DNA of 64,000 nucleotides. Origin: Sporopachydermia quercuum. Its lineage: Eukaryota. The stretch's first letter is position 1; each line of letters starts with the position of its first letter. Shown here one piece after another: positions 1,251 to 56,437 of the stretch. The notes under the pieces are model-generated. The model was given only the letters and a program-made list of their open reading frames with translations. It was not told the origin of the DNA and did not search any database. Made by a program: the position numbers and the translations under genes. Location: assembly GCA_001599295.1 (NCBI GenBank), contig BCGN01000002.1, forward strand, positions 1,984,001 to 2,048,000, read 5' to 3'.

Positions 1251-1562
1251 ATGGTTGAACAAATTAAATCAGTTGAACAATTCAAAGAAGTCACATCTGC
1301 TTCAAATTTAGTCGTTATTGACTTCTTTGCTACCTGGTGCGGACCTTGCAAGATGATTTCACCAGTTATTGAAAAATTCTCAAAGGAATTCACTGATGCC
1401 AGTTTCTACAAGGTTGATGTTGATGAATTATCATCTGTTGCTGCTGAAAACGACATCTCATCAATGCCAACATTTTTATTCTTCAAAGAAGGTAAAGTCA
1501 TTGGTAAGGTGATTGGTGCTAATCCATCTGCTATTAAAAATGCTATTCAACAAGCTTTATGA
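1251..1562 (+). CDS. TRX2: Thioredoxin (TRX1/TRX2 orthologue), 103 aa; probable readthrough extension to 1580
   Basis: WCGPC active site, DFFATW and SMPTF motifs, strong CACA-ATG start context. Confidence 0.97.
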   Translation: MVEQIKSVEQFKEVTSASNLVVIDFFATWCGPCKMISPVIEKFSKEFTDASFYKVDVDELSSVAAENDISSMPTFLFFKEGKVIGKVIGANPSAIKNAIQQAL

Positions 1563-2323
1563 CTATACAGCAAGCTATAAACAGGTCAAATGGAATGGTC
1601 TATTATATAATATGTTTCTTTATAAATGATTGAATATATGTTCATTTCAAATAGAACGAGCGTAGATACTCGTATTGTATATGTACTCTAGAAGCAAAGG
1701 ACAAAGGAAGAGTAACGGAAGCAATGAATGTATGTAGAGCAAACCAAAATTAGAAGAGATAAAGAGTAAACCAAACCTGTATATAGTTGAAGTATTTCGT
1801 AGCGAAATATATCATATTCTGAGAGAGGTCAAAATAGCCGGATGTTAGAATGTTCATATATTTGTTTACTTCTAGTAAACCTGACCTTCAGTTCCTTGAA
1901 ACAACTCTTCCATATTTGTCACTGTCATCTACTTGGAAAGCAAATATTGATTACTTGATTTTCTGAATAAATTGATGGATATTAGGTGAGTCTTTTGATC
2001 ATATTATTTCTAATCTCTTAAAAACTCATTATTCCTGTAACTAGTCCTCTGTCAATGGAACAACACCAGCAGTACCATTGATTACTTGAGCGAATGAATG
2101 ATAAAGAGCAGAATGAAAAATCTCGATTGATGCCAAGCACCAGCAACTACAACAGAAAAAAGTGTCAAATTAATTAATAGACAAACATTCAGAAATCAAT
2201 CGACGGAAATCTAGATATTCGTTATTAGCAATAAGTACATACTGTTACATTCGGAACAAAGCTTTACTTAACAAACTTTCTTCTTGCCCTTACTGACTAT
2301 TTCCGCACACTCCATCCATCAGA

Positions 2324-3193
2324 ATGAGCCCATTACGGAATGGTGAGAATTACTACGATCAATTCTATCGTGAATCAACTGATTTCGTAAAAGAACTCGC
2401 GGAAGAACTGAACCATTCAGAATTAAAAGCATACTACGAGAAGGATTTTCAACTCCTATCAACAATCCGCTATGATCTTGAATTGTCATTACGATTCTCT
2501 GAGGAATCCTTGAATAGCCCTTACTTTCTGTTGAAGTTTCATTTAGATCGGTTAAAATGCGAAGTAGAATTTTTCAAATGGCCTCTTGAACTATCAGCAG
2601 ATTCCTTAATTGAACAATTAGATCCTCTGATCCCAGATTACTCTAAATGCTATAAAATAAGAGTATTGGTTAACAAGGAAGGCAAAGTGAAAGTAGAGTT
2701 CTACGAAACAGTTTCATTACCAGATTTCATGTCAATTTTTGAACAAGACTATCTATCAGCGAGATATGATTTTAACTTACCAGGATTAGGATTAATTGAA
2801 GGTATCGATGATGCGCCATTATGGAAACTTTATAAAGACGAGAAGAGAATGATTCCCTCACCATTTACCAGTTTTAAGACGGATAAAAGACAACACTACA
2901 ATGAAGCTAGAGAAAGATTTGATATAACTGTTGGTTCAAAGAAAGAAGTGTTAATATTCAATACTACTGATCAATTGATGGAAGGGTCAATAACTAACGT
3001 CGCTATAAGGAAGTATGATTCATGGGTTACACCTATGTTGACTTCGGGTTGTTTATGCGGAGTGATGAGGACTCATTTGCTTTTGCATGGTAAGATTAGA
3101 GAAGATATAATATTATGGGACGACCTAAAAGAGGGCGATTTGGTATTATTGTTTAATGGTATAATGGGGGTGGTAAAGGCAATTGTCTGTTGA
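2324..3193 (+). CDS. ABZ2: 4-amino-4-deoxychorismate lyase (aminotransferase class IV); possible 11-nt first exon at 1975-1985
   Basis: FQLLSTIRYD, SPFTSFKT..R.HY..AR, EGSITNVA, TP.L.SGCLCGVMR and NGIMG motifs match yeast Abz2. Confidence 0.9.
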   Translation: MSPLRNGENYYDQFYRESTDFVKELAEELNHSELKAYYEKDFQLLSTIRYDLELSLRFSEESLNSPYFLLKFHLDRLKCEVEFFKWPLELSADSLIEQLDPLIPDYSKCYKIRVLVNKEGKVKVEFYETVSLPDFMSIFEQDYLSARYDFNLPGLGLIEGIDDAPLWKLYKDEKRMIPSPFTSFKTDKRQHYNEARERFDITVGSKKEVLIFNTTDQLMEGSITNVAIRKYDSWVTPMLTSGCLCGVMRTHLLLHGKIREDIILWDDLKEGDLVLLFNGIMGVVKAIVC

Positions 3194-3592: not shown

Positions 3593-4747
3593 CTACTCCT
3601 TTAAGGCATCTTCAATTTCTGTATCATTCCATCCAAGGATGTACAAAGCATCCTTTAAACTCTTGGAGTTTAATCTGCTAGGTGCTTGCTTTTGAACTGT
3701 TGGCTTAGCGTTCCAGGCAATGCCAAAACCAGCTTTAGCCATCATTAACAAATCATTGGCACCATCACCAATTGCAACTGTGCTTTCCAATTGTATATTT
3801 TCCTTAGCAGCTATTTCAACGAAAAGCTCTTCTTTCCTCTTGCCATCAACAATATCACCAACCACTTCACCAGTTAAAGTATTGGTTGCTTCATCAACTT
3901 CTAACGTGTTGGCAAATGCATAGTCAAGACCTAGTTCATTTTTAATATAGTTAGCCAATGGGACAAAGCCACCGCTTAAAACTGCAGTCTTCACACCGTT
4001 GCTTTTGAGCACTTTGATCAATTCTCTAGCACCATTCGTAATTTTCAGTTGCGGTTTCAATTCTTCAAAACAGTCAGCCGTGACGCCTTTTAGTAGCTTA
4101 ACTCTTTCGTTCAATGATTGCTTGAAGTCAAGCTCACCATTCATAGCTCTGGTTGTGATATCTCTGACTTGATCTTCGACATCAGCATATTTAGCAATGA
4201 GTTCAATTACCTCTTGTTCAATCAGCGTTGAGTCCATATCAAAAACAACTAGTTTCAACGAGTGCTTTCTATACTTATCTCTGTCATTTTGAATCAAGAT
4301 GTCAATAGAATTATCATCACCAAATTTCAATGCTTTCCTTTGAAGTTTGGCTGCCATCAATTGTAAAGCTAGTAAAGGATCCTGAATTGGGATCAACGCT
4401 TTCAATTTTTCATCTTCTGGATCTAATTTTTCATCTTCCTGTTGTTTTTTCAACGATGCTAAATGCTTGTGTTGATGATGAGTTGAATGATGGGAATGCC
4501 CACAAGGATCATGGTCATTGTCATGATAGTCACCAATACCATATTCGTCTCTCAAATCAGAATCAACCTTCTGAGAGATCAATTCATCAATGATAATTCT
4601 TAATTCGTATTCGATTACTCTCTGCGGGCTAACAATCTTGATTCCTGATAGTGTTGTTTGATACTTCTCCAAGAAGTCGTTCATCTTGGGAAGAAACTCA
4701 ANATTGAGACGTTCGTCTCTTGGAATGCAAGTTGCAATGTATGGCAT
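3593..4747 (-). CDS. SER2: Phosphoserine phosphatase (HAD family) with a His-rich N-terminal insertion
   Basis: VFDMDSTLIEQEVIE (HAD motif I), LSGGF and IGDGANDLLM motifs. Confidence 0.96.
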   Translation of the reverse strand: MPYIATCIPRDERLNXEFLPKMNDFLEKYQTTLSGIKIVSPQRVIEYELRIIIDELISQKVDSDLRDEYGIGDYHDNDHDPCGHSHHSTHHQHKHLASLKKQQEDEKLDPEDEKLKALIPIQDPLLALQLMAAKLQRKALKFGDDNSIDILIQNDRDKYRKHSLKLVVFDMDSTLIEQEVIELIAKYADVEDQVRDITTRAMNGELDFKQSLNERVKLLKGVTADCFEELKPQLKITNGARELIKVLKSNGVKTAVLSGGFVPLANYIKNELGLDYAFANTLEVDEATNTLTGEVVGDIVDGKRKEELFVEIAAKENIQLESTVAIGDGANDLLMMAKAGFGIAWNAKPTVQKQAPSRLNSKSLKDALYILGWNDTEIEDALKE

Positions 4748-15079: not shown

Positions 15080-17279
15080 TGTGTGTATGTGTATGTGTGT
15101 GTATATGTGAAACGAGCGCGATAAACGTAGAACACGAATGTTTCAATGCAAAGGATTAAAAAATGTTATATATAACAATGAGATTGTTAAATTGCTTATT
15201 TATGGTTTGATTTCTTGTTGATAATAATAAAAATGAACAGAAAAAAGTTTCACAAGACAGATCATACTAGCAAAACAGCTCTTGAGCAAGAGATTTCTTC
15301 TCTCTTAAATACTTCTCCAGTCTTTCTTGCGAGGAGGCATGTGTGTGTGGTTTGTATCACTTTCATTTTAATCTCAGAAAATAATGTTTGAACCTTAAAT
15401 CATAATTTTTCACTTTTAGCCAGTTATACCGAATGTTTATTACTAGATTTGGAATTAGAAATTCAATCAAAAATAATATTTGCATGAGTATTGTGGAAAA
15501 GAAGTGACTAGTTAACAGCGGATAATATGTACGTAAGGATCAGTTTCAAGATCTAAATTTGGCGAGCCGACCCCAGAAAGTCAGCGTTTGATAAGCACTT
15601 GATCGTTGTTGTTGGAGAAATAAATTGTTTTCTAGCATTCACTAATATTAATATCACTTGAGTGAGTATTTATTTTTAAAAGTTTGAGTAGCTTTTATTT
15701 TTTATGAATAATGTAATTGATGTTCGAATTGAGCCTATTTGAGAGAGAAAGAAGCTTTGCGCTGAAGCCTATTATTACAATTGGGAGTTAGACAGCTATT
15801 ATTAGATCAGAGAGTTCAGACTTTATATCGTGAAGAAGTTAGATGTAGAATCAATGACACAATAGCAATTTCATAAAAGTAAGGAATTGGCGCGTGAACT
15901 GGTGCTTTCTAGGAATTATAATGAGGGAAAACAATTGAGTACATTATGATAAGAGTGAATATTGGCTGTCAGTCTTTACGTGATGAGGCTGCATGTATTA
16001 GAGTGGATCATACTGATCAACATGTGTATTAGTTGTAATCCAAAATTCTTGTTGGACTTAAATGAGAGGAAAACTTTCAACTGCTCAATAGATACAATTC
16101 CTACAATCAATGGTTACTTGGACGTATCTTAAAAACATCTATGAAATGAGTCGTGCTTGTTACTGTGGCCTAGACACCTACCTCCATGTCTACTTGATCT
16201 ATTTATACATTGTATTGTATGTGACGTTTTAACAATTGGACCCTGTAAATACTGTTTTCTTTTGTTCTCCCCAGTTCTTAGTATGTTGTTATTTTATTTA
16301 AACATAGGGGCTGTAAGTAAATCCAAGTGGGTTGATTAAGCGTATCTGTCAATCATGAGTTACAAAAATAGATCCTGGAAGTGAATAGTATATTGTATTT
16401 AATTCCTCCGTACACTTAGGGATTTGCTGCTTTTTTTGGAAATATAGCCAAATAAACCTTAATTGATAAACTTTTATCTAGTATTTAGTGTGAAGTTAGA
16501 TGACCTTGAGAAAGCCGTTGGAATGTTGCGCATACCTCATTAAGTTTAGTTCAACTTTAAAGTGGATAATTCTCCGATCGGGGCGTGAGTATTGAGAAAT
16601 TTATACTGTTTCATTTGAATTGAAACAAGGAGCAAAATGAATTGATAAAAATAAAAGAAATATGTAATATTGATTTTCATAATACAAGTTATTTGATATA
16701 TTAAAATCATATTGTAAGCGTTTAAATGAATAATGTTTTAGTATATTAATAGAAACTATGGTAGGCGAGTGATTAATGCTAAATATGATTGTTAGCAAGT
16801 ATGATCTAAGTGGTTGGCAGGTCCTACATAGTAACTAGAGGAAATGAATATCCTCATAGAAATGAATAGTAAAACAGTTCCATCAGATTTAAAGCAGCAG
16901 CGTTTGTAAGTAGTATTCGAGGATTGATTAATTTGATGATTATACTATTAATTTGTAGATTCTTTATATTATCAGGTGTTGTAGTGATAGCTGACTATCT
17001 TTCCTATAGAACCAAGGCAGTCACATAATCAGTAAAATATGAAACAAGCCTACCCTTCTGCACAAGATACGATTTCGATATGTCAAACTGTGTATAGTAA
17101 ACAAAAGAACTTGTTGCAGTTCTGAAGTTTTCCTCCACCTGCAAAGCTTAAGGTTCTAAATTAGAGATAAAGTATAAATGATTCTCTGGAACCTTATTAG
17201 CATAGGCTTATTGTTGTGAATAGAACACCGGTCAATTGGTACTTCTAGCAAGATTCATATTTTATTTATTCTTTAGTCA

Positions 17280-18476
17280 AGTATTGAGTACTGCCTCATC
17301 AGGTTGAGGTAAAACAACATTTACAGTTGGCTTCAACTATTCTTCCTCACAAAACATACGAAACAATTCATTTAGACAAAGTAAGAGTCAAAATTTGTTT
17401 AATCTTACTCGCAAGTTGATATTGAGCCACAACCAACTCTGCCCGACTCGATTACTTTCTATTAAATCACTGAAAACAATTGAATTTAACAAGAGAATTG
17501 TACAAAGTGCTGTAAGAATGGAGTACAAGCAATCATTTGACAAATACTGTACGTTTGTAGATTGTAATAGTGACTAAAGATGTAGGCTCATCAATTGAAA
17601 AAATCTTCTAGCCAAGACAAAGTTAAGGTTTTTCAAGGCTATTAAAGTTATCTGGGGTAAATCTATGAGAGAAAATTATTTCTGTAAGTAATTAAAAATT
17701 TTCAAGCAGCCATTAATCACTGTGCAGTTTGCAGTTCAGTTGGCGTACAGATGGGTACTAGAACAAGAAAATTTCAAAAGAAACTTAAGGGAATAGCCGT
17801 TAGAACTACAGAAGTTTTGATATGGCTGAAGAATAGTGTCTGTTATCTTTTATGAAATTTCGTATGTGAATCTTTTTCATGCAAGGAATTTGAGTTCAGA
17901 AACTGGACTACATTGTCACTAATATCTGAGATTATGGGGTTTCGAATACTTTAAAGTTAACTGGTGTGTAGAAAGTAGTTTCATGGAAGCCTGCCTAATT
18001 TCAAAGTCAATGTATAAAACGGTTGAATATTTATTTATACTTAAATTGTAAAGGCTGAATATAGATAGTGAACTAATTTTATCCCCTATCTTACTATTAA
18101 ACGTAGAGTGCAGAATCAAGGTCTGAAAATATTCCACATCATTCGATGACTGGGAGGCTGTAAACTTTTGTAGGCACTCAGTGAACTTGTCATTCTTCTG
18201 TTCCATCTTTAAATTCAAACTTTAAATCTTAAACCTTTTTGTATACGTGAACAAAATGTCTGGTGAGACCAATCCATCATTATGACAATGAGTGTAGTGC
18301 CATAGTGCCAATGTACAGTAAATATTTACGTCTGGCGTCAATTGAGTTTATAACTCAACATCATGGTTCCATTTTCAATCGTACTGATGAAATTTTTTTG
18401 AAAGAGAAGTCTTCACTCGTTGTTGTACATAGCCAGTGTTGGAGTCTTTGACCTGTTGCTGTTCTACACGGGGAAT
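17280..18476 (-). pseudogene. Possible decayed coding relic (long frames with sparse stops and frameshifts)
   Basis: The 99-codon ORF 18218-17919 extends upstream in frame to about 18476 with only 3 stops; further mostly open frames run down to about 17280. No family recognised. Confidence 0.25.
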
Positions 18477-20969
18477 TTAACATTTAATCAGTTTCACAAT
18501 GCAGATAGCAGTTGAGTTGACAAGAGTTTAATGAGCAACCCGAAACAAAAGCATTTTCATGTCTAGTTACATAATAGGTAGTTTTATTTTGTTTTCCGCA
18601 GAAGATATTAAACAGTCTGACCACGTAATACATGAACAACGATGAGTACTTACCTAAGATCACGTAATCATAGATTATACATTAGGTTGAAGTCAGATGG
18701 CATATCACGAGATCTTACCAAGTGTTGTTGCCTTCTTCTTAAGTTCAAATGTTCAAATATATAACAAAAAAAAGAGAGAAGAATCAAATTCGATATGGAT
18801 GGGTACTTGCGAAAGCATTGGGTAAATTTCTGGCTATTTCGCACTTTGGTTCCTTGACTTCAATGATGTTATAGTGAAACCTATGAATGTTTCAGGGGTT
18901 AATTGAACCATTCTCAAATATTTCAGATATTTTCTATTATATCTACAAAATCAACTTCTAAATCGTATTTGAAAATGAAATAGTAGACCATAGCTAGCCT
19001 AATTGGTTAAATGGTATCCGAGGTTTCTAATATTTTGAACCAAGTTGTCTTTATAATAATGCTTTGAGAGAACTGGAAGTTACGGCTATTATTCAGTAGT
19101 CAGTCAATATTAGAGTATCACTGGTTTCATATCTGTCTCAAAAGTCGACGATAGTCTTACAGAGTAAAGTAAACTGTCTCAAAAAAGTAAAATCTGATAC
19201 CTGTTCTTTAAACAAACCACAGTATTCACACATTTATCTGGTTTCAATTTTAGAATCTTAAGCATGAATGACTGGGTTGACTCCTTTAATGATTATTTTC
19301 TCTTTGCTCTTTGGTAAGCTGGTACATTTGTATCTTTTACCATTAAATTAATATAATCGAACTCCAAAATTTTATTCTCATTTTTAGTTATTGTCCTTAT
19401 CGGCTTCCTCCTTCAATGTTCTTTAACTGGAGAAGAAGATTAGAATAAAGCTTTCCAAGAGGCATTTAAAGTTTTCCCAATACAAGAAACTTTATTTTCC
19501 TAACGGGATATGATCGGCAATACTACTAACCAGCCAACTTACCATGAATCGTCAGTTGTTAATGTTACGACTATGTGAATGATACTTTTGTCTCGAAATT
19601 TTTTGAAATCTGACGTCTGTAAGGTTTATCTTCAATAGTTTTAATTACGAAGACAAAAACTAGACAGAAACAGTGGAATCGTAGTTTGGTCGATAAGCCC
19701 AAAAGAACTGTTTACTCAGACATTAAGATGATTCAAATAGGGTATATGAACACTTCAACGGTCAAAATCCAAGCGAGATTTACCAAACTTTAGCTATTTT
19801 CGGGAATACCAATAACAATTCATATATATGAACAGGTTTCTCATAGATGTAGAAGCAACTGTAATGCTTACAGGACTCTTTGTTTGAACCTAGCTGAATC
19901 TGCCCGAAGTCTTACAAGAGATATTAAAACGTCACGGAGATGGCTGGTGAGCTTACAAAATTTTTCTTTATTTTTAATAAAATAATCTATTTCTCAAGTT
20001 CTCTAACTTATTATAAAGTTTTTGTTTCCTTTTCGACACTCACATCAGTTGGATATAATCATTCTAATCAAGTGTTATTGCTTCTATTGGAAGCGGAATC
20101 CGTTCATTGAATTCACATCATTAAGCTCTAATACATACAATCCCTCTACAGTAAAATACTCTGATTTATTCGAATGCTCTCAAAACCCTCGAATAAGTAA
20201 TTAAATAATTCTGGTTGGATACAATAAATACTAAATTGGAGAGACATTAGAATTGCAGTAAACACAACGTCAAACTTGTGAACTCATTGAGTTTGCTCCA
20301 GGGACTATGGACCATGTCGTGTGAAACTACCCCAAATACATGCCCATAGTATGACTATTGATAATTCATGGCATTTAACTTTTTATTGCCTGAGAGCATA
20401 GTTTCTGAAATGCCGGAGATTCTATAACATTATACGAAGACACTAAAGTAGCATAACAATCATTCATACATTACGTTGGGTTAATAATTACAATGCCTAA
20501 ACTGTTTCTATTTCTCTTATCCCCGAGGCAACTAGAAATACACTCTCTAGGTTCAAGTAAGCTAAAATGTATGATAACCTACATATTAATTGTTGCTCAT
20601 CAGACCTGTATCGTAGTCAGTGGTCAGAAAATGCTTATAACGATGGATGAAGATTCAGTTGATATAATTAGCCAAAACCTTCTTTTGCCTTAACTATGTT
20701 TGGTGCAAGCTCGTTAAAGCCGATTAAGACTTCGCTTCGTAATTTCCAAAAACGGAAATGCACTTCAATCGTATATGTTGAATATTTCACTTCACCCAGC
20801 CATTTTCTCTTTTTATANTGTTTAATGCCTAATTGATTGTTTTCTTCATGCTTGTAAGATAATATATGCTCAATATAATTATTAGATTCAGCAAATATGT
20901 CATATTAAAGTATCAAATACATTTTGGACAGTTTTTTCTCTGAAAGGGGATGAATAATACAACTTTTAA

Positions 20970-20980
20970 GGTTCGAACCC
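20970..20980 (+). promoter_or_regulatory. Isolated Pol III B-box (GGTTCGAACCC), ETC-like TFIIIC site
   Basis: Perfect GGTTCGANYCC match with no cloverleaf or A-box around it. Confidence 0.35.
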
Positions 20981-21960
20981 CATTTGCGAATCATCTACAT
21001 TAGAAACGGGTCTTGCAACANGTCCCATAGAATCACAATTTGTCAAATTCATTACTATTTTAACTTTCTTTGCTCCTTTTGACAGATATTTAAATGACTT
21101 GCGCTAAAATTGAGATAATATTGTTCAAAGTTTACTCATTTCTAACTCAAAACATCTGAAAGAAGGTCATGTTGCAAGCCATCTCACTCTTTTGCTTTAC
21201 TGGAACAGCTTCACCGCTTCTGAAGTTTTCTCTTCGATGTAATCTCGGCAAACGGAAAACTTATGGCAGAGATTTTGTTAGATTGAATATGTCTAGACCT
21301 CTTCTTCGTTTATTCAACTACGATGTAGCGCTACTAGATTCTCGTTTATCTCTTGATTGCAAGCCATCTANCTCTAACATAATTTGTTGTCATCTGTAGG
21401 AATCCAAATTTTGACTAAAATTACGACGNTCTTAATCAGTCTTAAGGAAACTAACAGGCAATTATTTTTTTCAGGAGATATATTACAATGTTCTCCTATT
21501 GTTTTTGTCTCGTATATATTGAACTTGGCATGCTCTAATTTTTTTTGGTGAATAGCATAGTCTTCATGGTTTGTTATGGTTCCTTTCCTACTTTTTCATT
21601 TGTAATACTATTATACCAACCGCGCAAATACAAAAAAGAAAGTATTTTTTAAATACAAACACGAACAAAACATTTAATTTATAATCTTTAACACCAAGTT
21701 TGAGCAAATTTTTCATCATTCATTGAACGATAACGACATCAATTTGCTCTACTTTTTCATTCTTTTGTTAAAGTGATAAAACAGTAGAATCAGTCAATTG
21801 CAATATACGATAAAACGGACNGGTTGATCAAACGTATTTCACACTCGTTTTTCTTTTTATGCAGCTGAAAATTATTATTGGACAGTTCATCCACTAGAAG
21901 TTATAATTATAATTATACCATTATTATTTTCACACAACCATCAAAGCTCGGACCAACAAA

Positions 21961-25715: not shown

Positions 25716-25920
25716 TTCCTAGGGTTCAAAAAGCTGCTCAAGAGAGTGAATAAATTCTAGTGTAGCGCTCACTTTGGAAAATACTACCGCTTCATTCAAT
25801 CTAATATTATCCATGTTTTCCATTAATTCAGTTCTTATCACAGGTTAAAGCAAGATAATTACAGGAAGAGAATCTCCAATGAGTTAGAACACATAGTGTC
25901 TCCTCTTGTGTTCTTAACTT

Positions 25921-25929
25921 TCACGTGAC
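25921..25929. promoter_or_regulatory. Cbf1/CDEI-type E-box TCACGTGAC in the divergent NNT1/DUF202 promoter
   Basis: Full GTCACGTGA consensus on the minus strand. Confidence 0.5.
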
Positions 25930-26168
25930 TAACATTTCAGAGCTTAAATTCTTTTCCTTGATCTTTGTCTGGGTATGCAGTATATTGCATCATTGCAGGA
26001 CCGAACTAAAACAGATATATCTGAACAGGTATAAAGAAGCTTTGTCTTCACAGAATCAAAAGTATGAGAAGGGTTAAGAGTTAAGAAGGGAAAGAGCGAG
26101 TATGTTCGAATTGTGAAGTAGTGGTAGCATCCAACTCGTGATAACAATAACTATACAGGAAGACAAAG

Positions 26169-26841
26169 ATGTCGCTGCGAGAGATATTCAGTAAAGATAA
26201 CTTGGGGTCAGTAGTATTGGAGAATAAAGGGTCAGTAGCTCGTGATCATGTAAGTAAAAGAGATAGGCAGAGTAGTATATCATTTGATGTTGACATGGTG
26301 GTAGGTTAGTTGAATTGTAGATTTTCTAACGTTCATTTTTAGTTGGCAAATGAGAGAACGTTCTTGAGTTGGTCTAGAACAAGCTTGGCCTTTGCATCAA
26401 TTGGGGTTGCAGTGACACAGTTGTTTCGACTTATGTCAAGTATAGAGAAACCAGAAGAGGGACATGAATCGTTGAAGATGATTGGTAGACCCATTGGTGG
26501 TACGTATATGATATGAAATAATAGATCAGCTTTGAAAGAAGGTTTTACTAATAGACACAAATATTAGCTGCATTCATCATAACCGGTATACTAATGTTGG
26601 TTATGGGAGCTTATCGATTTTTCAGAACTCAGTATCTGTTACAAGATGGCAAATTCCCAGCAGCAAGATCTTCAATTCTTATTTTACTTTTATTAGCATT
26701 AACTGTAAGTATTGAGCTTTCAAATGCTCTTTTCGTGGTTTCCTACGATGTAGTGTTTCATGGTATATATTTATCTACTAATAATTACTATTTTAGCTGG
26801 TAGTCTCAACATTTGGTGTCATTCTAGGGTTTTCAAAATAG
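26169..26841 (+). CDS. DUF202 (YidH-like) small three-TM membrane protein, 139 aa; exons 26169-26249, 26343-26499, 26568-26704, 26797-26841
   Basis: Spliced frame LENKGSVARDH|LANERTFLSWSRTSLAFASIGVAVTQLFRL...GAYRFF..Q..L..GKFP; donors GTAAGT, GTACGT, GTAAGT; total length 420 nt. Confidence 0.9.
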
Positions 26842-27083
26842 GTACACGAATAAATAAAATCGCATTCTAAATAATTTCATCTATAAAACTACTTTCCTGT
26901 ATCTTTATATTTATTTCAAATTTGCAATAGACAATAAAGAAACGATAAAGATATTGCCTTATCTATTCTATCTAACCGTTGTTCCTTATGATTGTGTGAA
27001 AACTCTATTAATGCATTAGTTGCATGAAGCCGCATGAATCTATCAACCTATACTAGTTACTTCTGCATAAAGCCCTGTTATAG

Positions 27084-27150
27084 CACGTGATAGTCATGTG
27101 CTTTATTGCCAATCAACGTCACAGTTTTCTTTAATACTCTCTTAGGGGAA
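27084..27150 (+). promoter_or_regulatory. RPS30 promoter with a Cbf1 site (CACGTGA 27084-27090) and a TTAGGG Tbf1-like site near 27142
   Basis: Motif matches; the Cbf1/Tbf1 pairing is known for ribosomal protein promoters in yeasts that do not use Rap1 there. Confidence 0.35.
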
Positions 27151-27385
27151 CATCTAAATAAGACCAAAGCAATTTAGGAACCTCAGCTTGGCTTGTAGAC
27201 AGACATGCCTATCCCTCCCACACAATCCTTTCTCTTTCTTGCCATAGAGCGCTCGATACAGTAGACAAATGTTGACTTGTAAATTGACTTTATCCACTGT
27301 TATGATACTTGAAAAATAGAATATATATATAAATATATAGCTTCTATTAATCAACAAAGATATATATTAATTTTAGTTATTCAAA

Positions 27386-28007
27386 ATGGTACGTTACAAC
27401 AAGCGAGATTAATCATGAACGGTAGCAGCAGTATGGCTAAACGAAAATTGATATGAAAGTGGTGGCGCATCAATACAAAAGTATTACAGTAAGAGCTTCA
27501 ACGGTATGGATATCGCTATGAGATGAGTGGGGTATAATTGCAAATCGGTTTCTAAGAGTTCGATGTCACTAATAGGTGTAATGCCTTTCAGTGGCTCTCG
27601 AATTATACAGTGTCATTATGCGGCACAGTAATGATCAAGAGGTATAATGGAAAGTCAACTGGAGCAATTTCGACTAGTCGCACGCTAAATCGAAGATATT
27701 TTAATTTATATTTGGTCAAGCAAATCAATTTTCGTTTATGCATCATATTTGTATCATGTCAAACAATCTCGGTTTTGAACTGTGATCATGGCAAGTACAA
27801 TTATTAACAAACTTCTAGGGAAAAGTTCACGGATCCTTAGCTCGTGCCGGTAAGGTCAAGTCTCAAACTCCTAAGGTTGAGAAGGAAGAAAAGCCTAAGA
27901 GACCTAAGGGAAGAGCTTACATGAGATTAAAGTACACTCGTCGTTTTGTCAACGTTACCTTAACCAACGGTAAGAGAAAGATGAACCCAAGTCCTGCCAA
28001 CAAATAA
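27386..28007 (+). CDS. RPS30: 40S ribosomal protein S30 (eS30), 63 aa; ATG exon 27386-27388, intron 27389-27818
   Basis: [23 protein letters not shown]...[25 protein letters not shown] donor, TATTAAC branch, TAG acceptor. Missed by the ORF track. Confidence 0.97.
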
Positions 28008-28335
28008 GAGTGTTGAAAGAAACAACAAGATCAAAGACGGAATAAGCTGATATTCGTTGATATATATGTATGATCATCANGTGTATCGAAATGAGTTAAT
28101 TTCTTTGGTTGCGTATACATCCTTCAACGGGATATTGGTGGTCAGGTTTCATGGTCTCTTTAATACTTGTATTTCATAGGAGAAAGAATCTTAAAAACAA
28201 TATTTAATGGATCGATTGAATGTAAGTTGTAAGCTATTTTGGCTCCTGTAGAGTTTATGTATATATTTTAATATTTGGCGGCATGATNATACTTTATTTG
28301 TATAGTATTGAATGTGTATTAAGTGATTAAATGTA

Positions 28336-28914: not shown

Positions 28915-31900
28915 TGTTCAATTTGTATGTGAGTTGTATAAGGTTGTTGGAATTACAACCGGTTTTGCAAGTACAGCTTTACGGCCTTTAGAAGATGAAT
29001 GACTAGAATAAGAATCGGAAATCTATTGTAATTTAAGCAAACCAGATTCAATGACTCAAAAACCCAGGTTTTGCAATGCAACTNAAGTAAATTATGTAGA
29101 TGATATCTTGCCGATACGACGAATTATCATTCTATCATATTAATCTGGATAGAACCACCAGCAGGATTTAGAATGGTTGCGATTTCCTTCTCTATGTACT
29201 TTCTGTAATGTTATATAGCCTCTACTATAATTAGTACTAATCATCGTTGTGCTCTTAGGCATGCATGGCATTCCTCATAATACATAGAGATAAAAGTTTA
29301 AACTCTACCAGCAGTAAAACGTAACTTTCTTTATGAATCAGGAAATAGTTTCTTTCTTTCTGCTAGATAAAACTAATTTACATGCGAACATAGGCAGTAN
29401 CGCTTTCATGGAGACATATTGTTCAATGTTCATTTTATGTATTTCATAAAGATTTGATACTTGATGTTTAACCTTACATAATTAAAGTTTCGCGTATTTC
29501 TTCTGTCTTCCATCATTAAGATCTCTGAATGACAAGAATTTTATCGAAGACGTCTATTTCATAATTTAATATCGATTTAGGAAATTGCGATACTTCAAAA
29601 CTACCAGTTTCAATAATAATAAAATAAAATAAAAATAAAAATTAGAAAAAGAGCATTTTCTATGAACAGTTCATTAATCAATAAATCATCAATCAATTGA
29701 CAGCTTTTACTGTAGCTTAAAGGTTTCAGCTAAGTCTCAAGCTAAGGTTCCTCATATGCACAAAGCTTTGCTAAAAGTTAAGGTTTATTAACAGCCTTTG
29801 AAACCGTTAAAAAGTTGTGGTGCGCCATACCAAAGTATAATTGAGTTAAATATAAATATAGAAAAAGCTCAGTGTATTAATTCCAGTTGNTATTCAACTC
29901 CTAGGCAATTTCTGTAACCTAAATTTTCTTCTTTTTTTGTGAACAAATTTGATTATGAGTTACTACTAACACAATTCTGATTGCTTCATTAAAGAAATAA
30001 GTTTGGTATACATGAAACAGAGATTCGTAGGTAATTGAATGTTGGTGAGTATTGAAGCAGACTTACATAGTTTCCAATGTTTATTATATATGCCGGAATC
30101 CACTAGTTATAGAAGGAAGTCAGTGATGAGATCTATTTTGTTAAGATACCTATTCGATATCGATTGTTTTGAATAATCGTTTTGGTAGTCAGTTCAGTGT
30201 CATATGATTCGGTAATATATTCTATGACACCGAATCAATCATATTTGACCCGCGTGCTTTGCTCTTTTGAAGTTCACTACTGGCAACCTAGTTTCTCTCT
30301 GGGTATATAAANTAAAATTTCATTATTGAATTTGTTCATTAGATCTCTTGTTCTCACCATAACGGGATCGTCGACAGGAATCGACGACATCAATAATAGG
30401 AAAGAATGATATTACGCTGCGAAGGTACAATCTTCTTCAATATCCCTTACTTTCACAAGTAACTTGCTATGCTTCTAAATCTTCTAATAAGTGTTGTCGA
30501 ATTAGATATTGTGAAGATGCTCTTGGCACCGATGCATATTTCTCGTTCTCTTTGTTGTGCACAATTAAATCCATGCTAACAGAATTTTCCATCTCCTTCT
30601 CTGAATGTTCTGATAAACTAACCTAAAAGAACCAAATCCAAAAAAACCTTCGAGGAAGCTTAATCTTTTACGAGGTCTGTAAACCTAAATTAAGACTCTA
30701 ATACGTTTGCAACTATGAGCTGTCAGAAGTTGTCTTGAAATAATATAAAAATAACAGAACAATAGACGGAAAGTACAATGAGATCAGAAAAGCAATTATT
30801 AGATAAATAGAATTTATAATGTTTAAAATTTAATCTTAAATGGAGCATTCTCTCTTGCTTTACTGTTCGCCTGTTTTCCTTCTCCTTGGGCACCAAATCA
30901 CCTTCAAATTGACTTAAATTTATGTTTATACTATGATGTCATACCTCAAACCTTTCGGAATGAGTCTTTTTCGTTTGGTATGATGATTTCTTTTTTAGAT
31001 TAGTTGCAAGATCAACAGATGAATTACTCTATGAAATAGGTATGCTTGCTTCTTATGGATTTTTGCATAGCTAAAGTAATCAGAGGGTATTTCCTTTGAA
31101 AGGTTGTTCACCTATTGGTTTTGGTGTTGGGAATACTGCACATGTGACAAGAAGTTGAGAGAATACCGTAGAAACTTCAACTAGAAGCCTACATACTTTT
31201 ATACTCTTTGAGGAAAAAATACCAATGAGAAAGTATGTCGATGATTACTGTTAGTTCGAAATTTCAAGAGACGCTGAATAGATAATAGATAATACATGAT
31301 GCGAACATTGTACATTACATTATGCATACCTACCATGTAGACAAAGGAATCACTTAAATGAAATAGCAATATGAATTTCAACAACAAAGTACATAAATTA
31401 ATTAATTAATAAATTTCTATTTTTACTACTTTTTTACTACGAATGAATTACTTCGAATGAAAAGCCTCCTATATAAAAATTACTAATTTCCAGAATACGT
31501 TACTACTTCAATTAATTAAAAACATCTGACAAGTAGCTCAAAAATTAGCAGGTCTCAAGAAGTTATAATGCTTGTGTTCTTAATGAAAGGAGGGTGCTAA
31601 ACTTGTTGGTGGCACTTGTCTCATTGATTGATAACATGACTCTGTTTTGAACAAGGATGGCTTAAAGAAACAATAAACAATAAACTACAAAACCCTCCGG
31701 CAGAGAATGGAAGAATTAATCAACATGGGATATCCTCCTATCTAACGATTACCCATACGGTCTCTGCTCAGAGCAAATCACCACTAATCAGCACTGAATA
31801 TTTATCCTCATTTATCCTCATTTGTTCACATCTTTTTTCCTTTTTTCCCCTCTTTACAACTAGCACGTTGTTTGATTCTCAATACAGAACGTCGAAAACG

Positions 31901-33299
31901 TCCCGTTATTAACCAATATTTTCTATCTAATTCTCTAATCTTCATCGCATTTCTTGAAACCGCTTCTATCATATGAAGGAATTACAATAATAGCCGTTGA
32001 ATTACTCAAATCGACGCCAGAAGCTCTTTTCGGTCTTCTATCAACAAGCATACCATAATCTTCCTTGCATGACCTCACATTAGGGAATTCACATGTCCAT
32101 AATATTTTTTCGCTTCCCAACATCAGTTGTTTATATCTTAAGTGACCTGCACAGATTATAAGGGTTTTGGGGGAAATGGGATATGAAAGAACTAACGATT
32201 AGCATACAACATAATGAAGCAACAAGTCCACTGGGTTATAATAATTGCTACAGTTTCTTTGTTTTAATTTACTACCGTTGTATCAAGAAGAATAGTTTGA
32301 TTCGTTTGGGTACGTGCATATGGTACCAAGAAAGACAAAGAAAGTAAGCATATCGTAAATCCTTTTCGATCATCATCTTCTTCTTCTTCATTTCTAGAGC
32401 TTTTGCTGTTGAAGTGAATGGTTTAGGGAGGGGTTTCAGTGTAGCCACTGCACAGTAGAAAAACTCACCTGTTCGTTTATTCTTGAAATTGACCTTTTAT
32501 ATTTATGTCCTTGCATTGATATCCTTTCTCTTTAATGGCCTACCATCATCCCTGCCATGATCCCATAATATCGGACTGCTCTTCCCATTAGTCCAATACC
32601 TTCATATTTCAGTATTGGTATCCGCTTTCCCTGTCCGATGATATGATGGCATCCTATTTCATTCTGCTCAAAATGAACCAATATTTGGAATTGTTCCGTC
32701 AAAGTTCAAACTCTATACAAGGTATATTATTTAATGGGCCGTTTGTTTNTCTTTTTTGGCTTGTTTTTCTCTTTTATCCGAATTTAAAGAATTATAGCGA
32801 TATTTTTCTTGAGTTGCTTAGAAAATTGAAAGATAACAAAAACGATAATAAAATGATTAGTAACTGGACGAGATTATTTTGAGATAGTGATAAATGTATA
32901 AAGACAGTTTGATTAATTAATCAATCAATAAAACGAAGGACATTTTGTACAGTTTATGCAGGAATAAGTGAATAGGTGACAGGCCAGGAAGAGACAAGTT
33001 AGTTGCTCAGACAAAGCAGCTCGCTAACATAAACACAATTCTCGACTTTTGTGACAGGAAACAATAAAAAAATATACTAGGAAACATTCAAGGTATCCAA
33101 GGTACTAGANCAAGGGAATGTGAATTGAAGAATAGATTTTCATCACTTCTATTGAAACTGATTTGACTAATTATAGATATTAGAACTTGAATTGGTGAAC
33201 GGTTTTCAATTGACCCATTCTACTGGGAGCGAAGAGTTTGATCTAACACAAGATAATCAGAGTCCNCAATTGATAATAACAACAGATATAAAAAACAAT

Positions 33300-34963: not shown

Positions 34964-36670
34964 TTAACTGGATTCAACAAAACCTGTAACTTCCTTATCA
35001 CCTGAGACACCGGAAATTTCAATCTTACCATTGACATCTAAATCAACAGTTAAAGTAATATCAGAACCCTTAGGAACATCATTCAACACCAAATCGAGAA
35101 GTTTTTGTTCGACCTTGTAAACTTTTTCTCTAACTTCTTCATCTTCGTCATCAGAATCAGAATAATCAGAGTCATCATCATCGGCTTCAACCTCTTCCTC
35201 AATCTTAGAAGACTTTTCAATGGTGGTCACCTTGATTTCGCTGCTACCTTCAGCAAACGATAACAAAACATCATCAGCTTCGGCACCAGATGCAAACTCG
35301 GCAGGAGCCTTGATTGAGAGTGTCTTTCTAGTAGGATAAGCAGTAATGGCATCCAGAATGGGCTCGAAAATACCGTTAGCATCCACTAAACCTAACGCTT
35401 TCGTTAGGTGTAGAGTATTGATAACAACAGGTTGAGTGAATTCTTTGAAGTCTTCTTCTTCTTCTAGTGACTCTAAGATAGATGCCTGTAAAGCAGCACC
35501 AATAGTAACTAATTCTGAAGGATCAAGGTAATCTGGAGTGTCAACATTGAATTTAGTTGATTCAGGGAAGAATAACTTCATAGCATCAACAAGTTTGTTA
35601 TTCTTGGAACTTCCACCAACCAGAACAACTTCATCTATATCTAAAGGATCTAAGTTAGCCTTCTTAAGTAGCTTTTCAACAAAGTGAACAAACTGACCGA
35701 ACACTGATCTTCCAACCAATTCATATCTCAATCTGTTGATAGAACTATGGAAATCATATCCAGCGGCTAAAGAATCAATTGACACAGTAGCAGATTGAAC
35801 ATTACTCAAAGTCTTCTTAACTGAATTACTTTCCAACTTCAGCTTGGCAACAGCTCTAGGATATTTTCTTGGGTCTTCCTTGAACTTCTTTTCAAATTCT
35901 TTAGAAAAGAACTCCATTAAGGCGTCGTCAAGTCTGTTTCCACCTAATTCGTAATCGTGCTCCGTAGCGAGGATAGTCATTAAGCCACCTCTTGAAGCAA
36001 TAATGGCTGCATCACTTCTAGCACCACCAAAATCAGCAACTAAGTATAACTTATCTTCTCTTAGTCGTTCTTCACTTCCATCTTCAACAGATGAAAGATG
36101 AGCTAATAATGCAGCAGTAGGTTCATTGATTAATTGCAAAACAGGAATCTCGGCCTTTTCAGCGAGTTCTATCAATTTAGCTTTCTCAACTTCAGTGAAA
36201 TCAGTTGGAACAGCAATCACACTCTTTTCGATTCCCTTTCCAACAAAATCTTCTCCGACTTGCCTTAATTGCTTCAAATGATTCAACACGATATCATCAA
36301 CACTGAGAATTTGTTCTTCGTACTCAGGTTCTCCTTCGGCATTTTCGCCAGCTCTCTTATTCTTAATCTTGTATCCAATACCTCCATCAGATAGCTTAAC
36401 AGCTTTAGCTCCTCCATCAGCTAATGTCAAGTCAACATCATCAAACTTCTTACCGATGAAATCACGGAAATTGAAAACCGTATTTTCTGCATTTCTAACA
36501 ATTTGAGCTAATGCTTGTGATCCGTGATATTCGTCTTCACCTTTGTACGATAAAGCTGAAGGAATGCTTCTTTCACCATCACCATTAGCAATCACTTCAA
36601 TCTTACCTTCAGGCTTTGCATAAGCCACTGAGGAAGTAGTGTTACCGAATGAAATCCCAAAAACAGTCAT
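34964..36670 (-). CDS. SSZ1: Ribosome-associated complex atypical Hsp70
   Basis: GISFGNTTSS, IANGDGERSIPS, ADFGG.RSD, TILAT.HDYELGG, SINRLRYEL; truncated SBD with acidic tract. Confidence 0.96.
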   Translation of the reverse strand: MTVFGISFGNTTSSVAYAKPEGKIEVIANGDGERSIPSALSYKGEDEYHGSQALAQIVRNAENTVFNFRDFIGKKFDDVDLTLADGGAKAVKLSDGGIGYKIKNKRAGENAEGEPEYEEQILSVDDIVLNHLKQLRQVGEDFVGKGIEKSVIAVPTDFTEVEKAKLIELAEKAEIPVLQLINEPTAALLAHLSSVEDGSEERLREDKLYLVADFGGARSDAAIIASRGGLMTILATEHDYELGGNRLDDALMEFFSKEFEKKFKEDPRKYPRAVAKLKLESNSVKKTLSNVQSATVSIDSLAAGYDFHSSINRLRYELVGRSVFGQFVHFVEKLLKKANLDPLDIDEVVLVGGSSKNNKLVDAMKLFFPESTKFNVDTPDYLDPSELVTIGAALQASILESLEEEEDFKEFTQPVVINTLHLTKALGLVDANGIFEPILDAITAYPTRKTLSIKAPAEFASGAEADDVLLSFAEGSSEIKVTTIEKSSKIEEEVEADDDDSDYSDSDDEDEEVREKVYKVEQKLLDLVLNDVPKGSDITLTVDLDVNGKIEISGVSGDKEVTGFVESS

Positions 36671-42477: not shown

Positions 42478-43061
42478 TTTTGCTCAAAAAGCTCATTGAC
42501 TTGATTTTTCGTCGTTTTTGCTTGTTTATTCGATATAATTTCTCAAATATATGGTGTATAAGTTGATTTCTGTTTGATTCTTGTTCAAACTGTGCTTTGA
42601 TTTACGGAACAGTAATAATGAAGCAAACCACTCTTCTCCTCATTTGTATTGTCGACTCTCTCAGTAAGATGCCTCATATATGAGAAAATCATGCATAATA
42701 TTAATAATTATAATAACTGGTGTTGTTTTTTCATTGATTTGAAGGAAACTTTGCATGTTCTATAGTACAACGGGTACTTTAAACAAACACTCTATAAAAC
42801 CAGATGCTTGCTATTTCTTGATTNATGTTTGAAACACCAATAACTCTCCATCTATCTTCTACAAGTCAACACCTACTAATCAATATATTTTCACCATCAT
42901 CATCAGAAATTCATTGTACTGTATATGTGTGTCATACGTCTGGTGGTTGCTTTGCTTAACATTGACCGATTTGTTTTGAGTTTTACGTCTCCTCCTACAC
43001 AAGATAAAATTTATAGCCTATCCTATACATGAGTTGAGATTCGATGTTAATATAACTATTG

Positions 43062-43204
43062 CCGGGTAATATTTGAAAAATACAAGTTGAGACTTGATGG
43101 TTTGTACCTGGTAAGATAGTACAACAAATTTTTTCTTTGGTAGGTGAAGTAAGAATGATAGAGATTGATGGATCGATTTGACATACAAAGTAATATAAGA
43201 TGAG
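43062..43204 (+). promoter_or_regulatory. Ribi-type NOP10 promoter: Reb1 site CCGGGTAA (43062-43069), RRPE-like A/T tracts, PAC core GATGAG (43199-43204)
   Basis: Motifs occur in the canonical order upstream of a ribosome-biogenesis gene. Confidence 0.55.
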
Positions 43205-43299
43205 CCTATAGTTTTGATTATTTCTGAACAGAAGGAAGATATTGATTAATAGAGATCTTATCTTTTATATATATTAGAATATTTTAATCTTTTGTCAAG

Positions 43300-43604
43300 A
43301 TGCATTTGATGTACACCGTTGGACCTGATGGAAAAAGAATCTATACTCTCAAGAAGGAGACAGAGAGTGGAGAAATAACAAAGAGCGCTCATCCAGCTAG
43401 ATTTTCCCCAGATGATAAATACTCCAGACAAAGAGTGACGCTGAAGAAGAGACACAATATGCTTTTGACCCAACAAGGTAAGTAAGGTTGCGATGTGTAG
43501 AGAAAATTGAAAAGTCCTTGAATTGGAGGTAGGACAATAGGAGGTAAGAGAATGATGCTTAAGAATGGATTCTAACTAGTAATTTAGTTGCCCCTCATGT
43601 GTAA
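43300..43604 (+). CDS. NOP10: H/ACA snoRNP subunit Nop10; spliced form 64 aa (exons 43300-43477 and 43588-43604), unspliced form ends at 43485
   Basis: MHLMYT...RIYTLKK...[31 protein letters not shown] at 43478, TTCTAAC at 43570, TTTAG ending 43587. Confidence 0.95.
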
Positions 43605-44327
43605 CCTGTTTAATTGGAATATTATGAAGATAATATTGGGAAAATAGGTATGAGAAAAAGAGATTTAGATCTGTTTGTTGGATCAGGTGTCTGTGGATGG
43701 TGGAATGTGTAATCAGATGTAGTGATAAGCTGAGATGGAGTTGAAAGAGTATTGACATGATGTATTGGAATATCAGCGGAATTCTTTGACGACAAATGTG
43801 ATTACAACTCATGCTCAAATTACACTGGAGTTTATGTTTGATTTGAAATGTTTCGTGATTTCATTAGGGTCGTATATACTGAGAGTGAGTAATTAATTAT
43901 TACAAGCTATATATCCACTCGTTCGGCGGAATTTCACTTTTTTGAATCGATACGAGATCTGATAGCATGTGGATTATATAAGGTGGTCGTTTTGCCGCAT
44001 ACTGTTATGTATTAATGCAATGTACAAGATGAAGCTCTGGGATTTGACGTAGACAATACGGTTCTTGGGATCATCCCACTATTTTGCACAACAATCTCCT
44101 TAGGGTCTTCAATATCCAGTTTACGCCAGATAAAACTTCAAAATGTGAACAAGTTTAATCAAATGAATTCATACAATAATATGAAAGAACAGTTCTCAAC
44201 CGACCAGTACCTTAAACTATTATATACTCAATGTTGCAAGACAGTCTTTCTCTCAAAATCATCGTGTCACAAATTATAGATTTTCCAGTTATTCCATCCA
44301 TTATACACTTAATTTCCCCGATGGCAA

Positions 44328-44767
44328 TTATAATGGCTCTTTCATATTTCCTGTGGCTTCTAGATTATATTGAACATTCTTTTGATAAGTTTCCCACATC
44401 TGTGATGTTATCTCCAAATCTATATTATCCTTGTTTATTTCCTACAATTTGAAAATATTAGTTAATTGTTTCGAAATTCATCATCAGATTTGATCACATG
44501 TTGTAATTAAGTTGAAATGACACTAGGTAGCAATTGTTCAATCCTCAGGCTGACGATATACATACCTCCAGTGATCTGTTGATAATGAGTATCGATTCGT
44601 TTAATCGTTCCTAAATCTGTTAAAAATTTGATCAGCAAAAAGTGATAGAGCAACACGTCACGTCATTTATTCTCAGTTTGTCTCTTTCTTTTGAGAGTGT
44701 AACATACTACATTGTTTATTATTCTTGCTAGGATTGCATTCTGTACTTGTTCGTGGGGATTCTCCAT
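44328..44767 (-). CDS. DAD4: DASH/Dam1 complex subunit Dad4, 72 aa; exons 44767-44708, 44610-44566, 44441-44328
   Basis: MENPHEQVQNAILARIINNV|ERLNESILIINRSLE|EINKDNIDLEITSQMWETYQKNVQYNLEATGNMKEPL*; both donors GTATGT. Confidence 0.96.
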
Positions 44768-45483
44768 GATCGTATTTGACTTCTTAGTTTTATAGATGAT
44801 AAATGATTCTTCAGCAATAGTAATAAGTGGGCATTTGATATTTGGTTTCACCTTGTGAAGATAGAACTAAATTTCAATCTTAGGGAATAGCTTACTTCTG
44901 GATTTGATCATTAGTTGATCCTATCTTACCGCGGCGGATTCACTATTGTTTTGGAATGTTTAGAAATGTTTACATTGTGAAACGTGACAGTTCATGTTGA
45001 GAATCGTATGCAGTTAATATGTATCATCATGTATCTTTGCATATTACTACAGAGACTGCAGAGACCTACATGAAAGTTTGGTGGGAATGAATTATGATTT
45101 CAGATCACATAATATTTATTCTACACTTTAAGACTGTGACTTGTGTTTCTAAACTAGGAAATATTGCTGGAAAAAAGGNAATATTGTGACTACTTATACA
45201 GTCTTAACCAAATTGTAGCGTATTTTTCATACCATTAGTATTATACTTAGCACTCTCAATTATTTTTCACGCCTATANCACAACCAAGCGAGTAGACTCC
45301 AGCTAACCTGAACGCAAGGTTGGGCCTGACGACAACTGACTTTGGAAGTATACTTGAATATTCGCTACTAGTTAGATACTCTCACCATTGAAACGTAGTA
45401 GAATTCACGTATTGTTGCGTAACTTGTATTGTTTGTAGATACTCAACAGCATCAATAATATACATCAACAAGTATTAGACAAA

Positions 45484-46273
45484 ATGGTATGTAACGAAAT
45501 ATCATTGCTTGGAAGAAAAGAGTCGACAATACACAGCAAAGAACAATGGAATGATTGACTATAATAGGAGTGAGCGGCAAACTANTTTTCTCAAGTAAAA
45601 TGAAATGAGGATCATGACAACAAGGATAAATCTATTTTATCATAAAATACAACTCTGAGATTTTTTTCTATGGTGTGCAATGTTTCTATCATAAAGCAAC
45701 ATTTGATCGTTCAATACAAGATAGAAAAATATTGAAATTCAACAACATTAGCACTGGATTCGAAGNTCAACCACGATTTTATGAGAACTATANTTTCATC
45801 GACACCGTAGTCATTTGTCTCTTGATTTAGATCTATCTTACTCATTATTGTATTATGCATTATACTAACGTGTTAAATAGAGTGACGCTATTACTATCCG
45901 TACCAGAAAGGTTATCAGCAACCCTCTCCTTGGCAGACGCCAAATGGTCATTGATGTTTTACATCCCAACAGAGCTAATGTCTCCAAGGATGAACTCAGA
46001 GAAACTTTAGCTTCCACCTACAAGACCGAAAAGGATGCTGTCTCTGTTTTCGGTTTCAGAACCCAATTTGGTGGTGGTAAGTCTACTGGTTTCGGTTTGA
46101 TCTACAACTCCGTTGAAGACTTGAAGAAATTCGAACCTGCTTATCGTTTAGTCAGATATGGTTTGGGCCAAAAGGTTGAAAAGCCTTCCAGACAACAAAG
46201 AAAACAAAGAAAGAACCGTGATAAGAAGGTTAGAGGCACCGGCAGAAGACAAAGCAAGAGAAATAGAGATTAA
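45484..46273 (+). CDS. RPS24: 40S ribosomal protein S24 (eS24), 131 aa; ATG exon 45484-45486, intron 45487-45880
   Basis: [36 protein letters not shown]...[31 protein letters not shown]. Confidence 0.98.
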
Positions 46274-56230: not shown

Positions 56231-56437
56231 ATACTGTTCAACTGAAACAGTATTTCATTATCGATAATCCCAGTTAACTTGTTTTACTTTTCCTTTATTG
56301 TCCAATGAATAGACCATAAGTAAATAGAGTTAGACCTCATTATGTATAAACATGCATGGTGAGGTCTAAGACTGAGGTTTTCAAACCAACCTTAAGTGCC
56401 CTCAAGCAACTATCAATTTGGCATTTATTTGAGCACT
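56231..56437 (+). other. Cluster of stem-loops including an 18-bp hairpin (56330-56369); candidate structured ncRNA
   Basis: Pairings checked by hand; TATATAA near 56205. No Rfam family recognised. Confidence 0.3.

Follow-up and report, generated by a model that had tools for sequence, protein, structure and literature searches.

A 64,000-nucleotide (nt) stretch of the Sporopachydermia quercuum genome (contig BCGN01000002.1, positions 1,984,001 to 2,048,000; hereafter the window) carries a thioredoxin gene whose stop codon is followed, in frame, by five codons and a second stop, such that readthrough of the first stop would expose a C-terminal Ser-Lys-Leu (SKL), which is a type 1 signal for targeting to peroxisomes (PTS1). 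Judged from the sequence, this tail looks like a young, duplication-born cryptic PTS1 that would probably yield a trace of peroxisome-directed thioredoxin, as a by-product or at most as a nascent feature; we put the chances of this reading at about even. The sequence, the duplication and the match to a published readthrough motif are observed directly and are set out first.

The thioredoxin gene and its in-frame tail

The features concerned are, by position in the window:

1251..1559, plus strand: thioredoxin coding sequence (open reading frame, ORF), 103 amino acids, WCGPC, TRX1/TRX2 type without N-terminal presequence
1543-1559, plus strand: source copy of a 17-nt direct repeat, CTATTCAACAAGCTTTA; the last 17 nt of the ORF, codons A-I-Q-Q-A-L
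1560..1562, plus strand: first stop, TGA, directly behind a TTA codon (UUA in the P site; A at -1)
1563..1565, plus strand: CTA at +4 to +6, which together with the stop makes up the leaky context UGA-CUA (motif per Stiebler 2014, Schueren 2014)
1563..1577, plus strand: predicted readthrough extension L-Y-S-K-L, with the SKL codons AGC AAG CTA at 1569-1577
1563-1579, plus strand: second copy of the repeat, CTATACAGCAAGCTATA; 14/17 identical; supplies CTA, SKL and part of TAA
1578..1580, plus strand: second in-frame stop, TAA, leaving SKL as the C-terminus of the extended form
1604..1609, plus strand: TATATA, a possible yeast 3'-end efficiency element (motif position only)

The ORF, 1251..1562 on the plus strand with its stop included, encodes a protein of 103 amino acids, MVEQ...WCGPC...AIKNAIQQAL. 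The 18 nt behind TGA are CTA TAC AGC AAG CTA TAA, which read L-Y-S-K-L-stop in frame. An earlier note on this DNA had pointed to this tail, and the letters and coordinates that it gave (1560-1580) proved exact when the ORF was re-read. It had also called the gene a thioredoxin, which is borne out by the homologues, the PF00085 domain, the WCGPC motif and the predicted fold, all of the TRX1/2 type. The thioredoxin query returned 908 homologues at E <= 0.001, the matches listed carry PF00085, and the top identity is 70-71% (Ambrosiozyma, Babjeviella). WCGPC (W29 C30 G31 P32 C33) is invariant across a 48-row alignment, and AlphaFold2 gives a thioredoxin fold with its beta-alpha pattern at a mean predicted local distance difference test score (pLDDT) of 95.6. 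The product is an ordinary cytosolic-type thioredoxin.

The normal stop stands where the stops of other thioredoxins stand. The distance from the tryptophan of WCGPC to the C-terminus is 75 residues in 112 of the 120 homologues listed, as in this ORF; 7/120 end 76-78 residues past that tryptophan and the remaining entry, P0059, has an aberrant long tail, while longer homologue entries owe their extra length to N-terminal extensions. A longer ancestor, truncated by a change of TGG to TGA, is thus unlikely, since the C-terminal length matches that of 112/120 homologues listed. A sequencing or assembly error at the stop is ruled out, since two public DNA runs of this organism, belonging to two studies, yield contigs that span 1000-2300 and are identical there, with 0 differing letters and 0 gaps; the window may itself derive from one of these runs, and a single strain may underlie both. 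A non-standard genetic code is irrelevant, as no CTG is involved in the stop or the extension, and yeast nuclear code variants are not known beyond those of CUG. Downstream, the TATATA at 1604 suggests, by yeast 3'-end rules, that the thioredoxin mRNA may extend beyond 1580.

A second, shorter repeat lies within the ORF, a 12-nt tandem repeat at 1491-1514 (GGTAAAGTCATT / GGTAAGGTGATT, 10/12) coding for G-K-V-I-G-K-V-I. It is not an insertion, because the protein length equals that of the homologues.

Apparent origin of the tail in a 3'-end microduplication

The letters behind the stop are a near-copy of the letters before it. The two 17-nt copies lie 20 nt apart from start to start, a distance not divisible by 3, so that the second copy is read in a frame shifted by 2. 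Two 17-nt units flanking a 3-nt spacer in this way match at >=14/17 identity at 2 of 63,955 window positions. Over all offsets of 17-40, matches of >=14/17 number 33 in 1,534,932 comparisons and fall in 14/2,133 bins of 30 nt. Because such matches are so scarce in the window, the repeat is judged to be real. The sole other window site with this geometry, 16927-16963 (ATTAATTTGATGATTAT / ATTAATTTGTAGATTCT), is a small tandem duplication in non-coding DNA.

In the frame of the copy, the source unit reads L-F-N-K-L-Y and the copy reads L-Y-S-K-L-stop. The CTA of the leaky context is the first three letters of the repeat unit (from GCT ATT), and KL is what the codons for Gln-Ala-Leu yield in the shifted frame. 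Between the copies the differences are T->A (Phe->Tyr), A->G (Asn->Ser), T->A (CTT->CTA, silent) and TAT->TAA (the new stop). All of these leave K and L undamaged, and AAC->AGC together with TAT->TAA converts NKLY to SKL-stop. Two of the three differences inside the 17 nt are synonymous third positions of source codons (ATT/ATA, CAA/CAG) and may therefore equally be later changes of the ORF, made once the duplication was in place. If the changes occurred in the ORF, SKL was present from the start and just the stop had to arise.

Read from the repeat, the CTA context and (S)KL share their origin in a single microduplication and so do not count as independent signals. With the copy still 82% identical to its source, the element looks young. 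As far as we have seen, a microduplication origin is undescribed for the known readthrough-PTS1 cases.

Predicted readthrough at UGA-CUA

That UGA-CUA is a published short leaky context, as the earlier note had it, is confirmed by Stiebler 2014 (PMC4207609) and by Schueren 2014 (PMC4359377). In U. maydis, CUA behind UGA suffices for efficient readthrough, the first two nucleotides weighing most (PMC4207609); the human high-readthrough consensus is UGA CUA (PMC4359377). S. cerevisiae ribosome profiling finds readthrough most permitted, position by position, with UGA as the stop, +4 C, -1 A, +6 A and +7 U; no stop/+4 combination leaks more genome-wide than UGA-C. By S. cerevisiae rules the whole context is mixed: UGA-C is good, the P-site UUA is poor and there is no CAR-NBA element. 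The readthrough share would probably be of the order of 0.1-1%. The residue placed at a read-through UGA in S. cerevisiae is Trp (82%), Cys (14%) or Arg.

A PTS1 is a C-terminal [SAC][KRH][LM] with a free carboxyl end and no acidic residues just upstream. The predicted tail, ...QQAL-(W/C/R)-LYSKL, is of this form and contains no acidic residue, so the description of SKL-stop as a canonical PTS1 holds. SKL or AKL alone carries a reporter into S. cerevisiae peroxisomes, according to PMC2120261. AlphaFold2, given the product with Trp at the first stop, places the C-terminal helix at 92-106 and leaves S107-K108-L109 non-helical at the end (mean pLDDT of the last block, 81); the SKL tail is thus predicted to be exposed on the folded protein.

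From the sequence observations and this modelled exposure we infer the readthrough level, the import and any use, as follows. A tandem duplication of ~20 nt of the thioredoxin 3' end would have set a frame-shifted copy of the last codons directly past the stop, and its junction would itself have created UGA-CUA, the copy reading L-Y-S-K-L-UAA in the thioredoxin frame. The majority of ribosomes would terminate at UGA 1560, and a small share (of the order of 0.1-1%) would accept a near-cognate tRNA (Trp ~82%, Cys ~14%, or Arg, by S. cerevisiae values), append five residues and terminate at the UAA at 1578. The product, Trx-(W/C/R)LYSKL with a free C-terminal SKL, would be bound by Pex5 and be imported into peroxisomes as a folded protein. 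Since peroxisomes are a small compartment, a small share may suffice; for LDHBx it is argued in PMC4359377 that a small readthrough share can yield an organellar concentration like that of the cytosol.

Comparison with known systems

Readthrough-exposed PTS1s are established for U. maydis Tpi1, Rpe1 and Art1 (Stiebler 2014, PMC4207609) and for human LDHBx and MDH1x (Schueren 2014, PMC4359377, and Hofhuis 2016). For U. maydis the earlier note had cited PGK; the proteins that Stiebler 2014 names are Tpi1, Rpe1 and Art1. Both sequence-level marks of this group are present in the thioredoxin gene, namely UGA-CUA and an uninterrupted in-frame extension ending in PTS1-stop. The likeness covers CU(A) behind UGA, an in-frame extension of few codons, a PTS1 exposed on readthrough only, and a soluble cytosolic redox or metabolic parent protein. 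Unlike the present tail, which is known from one species and from its letters, the established examples recur in several species, and reporter assays and microscopy have demonstrated them. They also differ in cargo, being dehydrogenases or glycolytic enzymes whereas here it is a thioredoxin, and in that the present extension, of 5 codons, is a recognisable copy of the end of its own gene.

A second group comprises pre-duplication budding-yeast IDP2 and S. cerevisiae PYC1, which carry a cryptic PTS1 in the 3' untranslated region (UTR) (Yanagida 2015, PMC4526572). As here, the host is a budding yeast and an intact PTS1 with its stop lies few codons past the normal stop, exposed by an error of translation or transcription; IDP2 and PYC1 have been cast as a stepping stone to a new localisation. 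The IDP2 motifs are common to 4/5 species and complement an idp3 deletion (PMC4526572). Their motifs, in contrast, are in the +1 frame and reached by slippage, whereas the thioredoxin tail is in frame 0 and reached by stop readthrough. A frameshift-exposed PTS1 of the pre-duplication IDP2 type is ruled out for the thioredoxin gene, whose PTS1 lies in frame 0 and whose stop has no run of T or A ahead of it at which slippage could occur.

Among thioredoxins the closest comparison is S. cerevisiae TRX2, a cytosolic thioredoxin and neighbour of SER2. In its likeness, the present gene encodes a 103-residue WCGPC thioredoxin that matches its yeast homologues in length, has a phosphoserine-phosphatase-type HAD gene 2 kb away and has two TTACTAA words upstream. 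A hidden PTS1 on S. cerevisiae TRX genes is not reported in the literature searched; the gene 3' ends themselves were not inspected. Consistent with the earlier note's impression that there was no prior account, neither a readthrough PTS1 on a thioredoxin nor a fungal peroxisomal thioredoxin was found in the literature searched, outside of which lie subscription papers (e.g. Freitag 2012) and the supplementary tables of the screens.

The programmed readthrough motif stop-CAR-YYA / CAR-NBA of budding yeast and viruses shares with the present context the C at +4. Unlike in that motif, +5, +8 and +9 (CUA UAC) do not fit, so the context is not a CAR-YYA / CAR-NBA element.

By-product, selected signal or inert coincidence

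Against a mere by-product speak the rarity of the pattern, the stop codon used and the nature of the changes in the copy; against even a trace of extended protein speak several details of the stop context. One rival reading is selected dual targeting, the view of the earlier note, in which a small amount of thioredoxin would reach peroxisomes through programmed UGA-CUA readthrough and there reduce thiol peroxidases or oxidised matrix proteins. We regard this view as rather unlikely. Its evolutionary counterpart, that UGA-CUA readthrough gives this isolated lineage of budding yeasts a peroxisomal thioredoxin in minor amount and that the signal was recently born by duplication, honed (Asn->Ser, the stop after Leu, perhaps TAA->TGA) and kept by selection, is held to be unlikely.

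Rarity was gauged against the window's own non-coding DNA, both strands. There, an in-frame extension ending in SKL begins at 26/80,714 start positions (3.2e-4), or at 2.7e-4 within <=10 codons, and one ending in any [SAC][KRH][LM] at 2.75e-3. After TGA, CTA follows in 27/1,940 cases (1.4%), CT in 4.9% and C in 13.5%. The strict pattern (TGA, CTA and a short extension ending in SKL) is thus expected by composition at ~1e-6 per gene, which is ~0.006 per genome if ~5,500 genes are assumed, and the loose pattern (TGA-CT with any PTS1-like end) at ~4e-5 per gene, or ~0.2 per 5,500 genes. Within the window TGA stops occur in 6/16 genes, with C at +4 solely in the thioredoxin gene; the remaining 15 lack both a PTS1-like extension and a +4 C behind TGA. 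The pattern exceeds what composition alone gives. The earlier note's argument from the coincidence of two signals fails, however, since one microduplication created both signals inside one 17-nt near-tandem copy.

For the stop codon, 80 thioredoxin loci were collected from metagenome contigs (identity <=63%, mostly distant eukaryotes and bacteria with ~2-4 budding yeasts), with 66 distinct 3' ends. Their stops are TAA in 50, TAG in 9 and TGA in 7, so that TGA stands here, in a probably abundant protein, in place of the TAA usual for thioredoxin genes. The changes in the copy, moreover, all suit a better PTS1 and look like honing. Further in favour of a selected signal, both fungi and animals have genuine readthrough-PTS1 genes that carry this UGA-CU(A) motif, and a cryptic 3'-UTR PTS1 is functional in budding-yeast IDP2.

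Both published screens require conservation in order to exclude chance PTS1s. No TGA-CT and no in-frame PTS1-like extension was found among the 66 distinct thioredoxin 3' ends, which are distant (<=63% identity); only two of the metagenome loci, L001 and L002, have C-termini like those of named budding-yeast thioredoxins. A C-terminal [SAC][KRH][LM] is absent from 268 homologous proteins (0/120 homologues listed and 0/148 from a representative search, whose best 150 matches are dominated by multi-domain thioredoxin-repeat proteins and which was used for C-termini only). The organism is, by its protein identities, an isolated budding-yeast lineage without a close relative in the protein collection, the best matches reaching 71% for the thioredoxin and 53% for SSZ1. 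The latter, an SSZ1-type Hsp70 at 34964-36670 on the minus strand, is at most 53% identical to any protein in the collection, its best matches being scattered across many yeast orders. The apparent youth of the element, at 82% identity between copy and source, likewise counts against selection, as does the upstream region: CCTCGG is absent from 1-1250, and a regular-expression search found no oleate-response-element-type pattern upstream of the gene.

The peroxisomal use proposed for the extended form meets further difficulty. The re-reduction of peroxiredoxins in peroxisomes is an open question in the literature, a point in favour of the selected reading; no thioredoxin reductase is known there, however, so an imported thioredoxin would be single-turnover. 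In mammals no peroxisomal thioredoxin has been identified and no peroxisomal thioredoxin reductase established. Yeast peroxisomal thiol defence as reviewed is glutathione (GSH)-based, comprising GTO1, a fraction of Glr1 and the GSH-dependent C. boidinii Pmp20, and S. cerevisiae Ahp1 is described in review as 'probably not a peroxisomal protein'. Support is thus lacking for the concealed thioredoxin circuit that the earlier note placed in peroxisomes, with Pmp20/Ahp1-type peroxiredoxins as its targets.

At the other extreme the tail could be an inert coincidence, with efficient termination, the extended form at background (~0.01% or less), and SKL the by-product of a neutral 3'-UTR microduplication of no cellular consequence. 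Here the unfavourable details of the stop context are to be counted. UUA in the P site, as found here, belongs to four codons with which wild-type S. cerevisiae shows lower readthrough; for +5, S. cerevisiae profiling puts U third among the four letters; and the budding-yeast readthrough element CAR-NBA / CAR-YYA is not matched by +4 to +9 (CUAUAC). A standard UGA-C reporter gives 0.217, presumably per cent. No stimulatory RNA structure was detected past the stop (z = +0.78; 162/200 shuffles fold as well). Raw material for such accidents is also at hand, as ~1% of Saccharomyces genes have a PTS1-like motif starting <=30 bp past the stop in any frame, few of them conserved, a count with which the window null is in agreement, and near-tandem repeats as good as this one occupy 14/2,133 of the 30-nt window bins. 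Against inertness, the pair formed by UGA and +4 C is the leakiest genome-wide in S. cerevisiae, and UGA-CUA alone gives efficient readthrough in a fungus and in human cells. Thioredoxin, moreover, is an abundant protein, so that 0.1% would already be a countable pool. We consider an inert tail improbable.

A cryptic, duplication-born PTS1 leaking a trace of thioredoxin towards peroxisomes, as by-product or at most nascent, lies between these readings. It fits the youth of the element together with the lack of any sign of a hidden PTS1 in other thioredoxins.

Implications of the locus

SKL exposed by readthrough would be a simple route for thioredoxin into peroxisomes, where the re-reduction of thiol peroxidases and oxidised cysteines remains open. 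Were the signal selected, this would be the first fungal peroxisomal thioredoxin described, and a new organelle-targeting signal would have been caught arising from a protein's own coding sequence. Whatever its function, the locus is a concrete example of how targeting signals can be born, a single 3'-end microduplication having apparently given both the leaky context and (S)KL. Such a birth is in line with the 'phenotypic mutation first' model, put forward for IDP2/IDP3 of yeast. If it is a neutral accident, the locus serves as a warning that seemingly independent motif coincidences may share a single mutational origin.

Neighbouring genes and other features of the window

The neighbours of the thioredoxin gene are:

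2324-3193: class-IV aminotransferase-fold gene
3593-4747: HAD phosphoserine-phosphatase-type gene, 2 kb from the thioredoxin gene

TRX2 and SER2 lie near each other in S. cerevisiae as well. Upstream of the thioredoxin gene are two TTACTAA words on the plus strand (485-491 and 738-744), which we take to be Yap1-type sites; the word is seen 16 times in the window against 17.2 expected, so that the pair is weak by itself.

Elsewhere, the gene for ribosomal protein S24 (45484-46273, plus strand) has a yeast-type intron right behind its ATG (ATG|GTATGT at 45484-45492, TACTAAC at 45863). N letters, 52 in all, are spread over the window (e.g. 937, 4702) and give X in several ORFs. Gene density, at 16-18 genes per 64 kb, is sparse for a budding yeast. 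Stretches without an ORF of >=100 amino acids are found at 15100-21900, 25800-28300, 29000-33200, 42500-45400, 51500-57600 and 61500-64000, and may represent large intergenic regions, intron-rich genes or frame errors.

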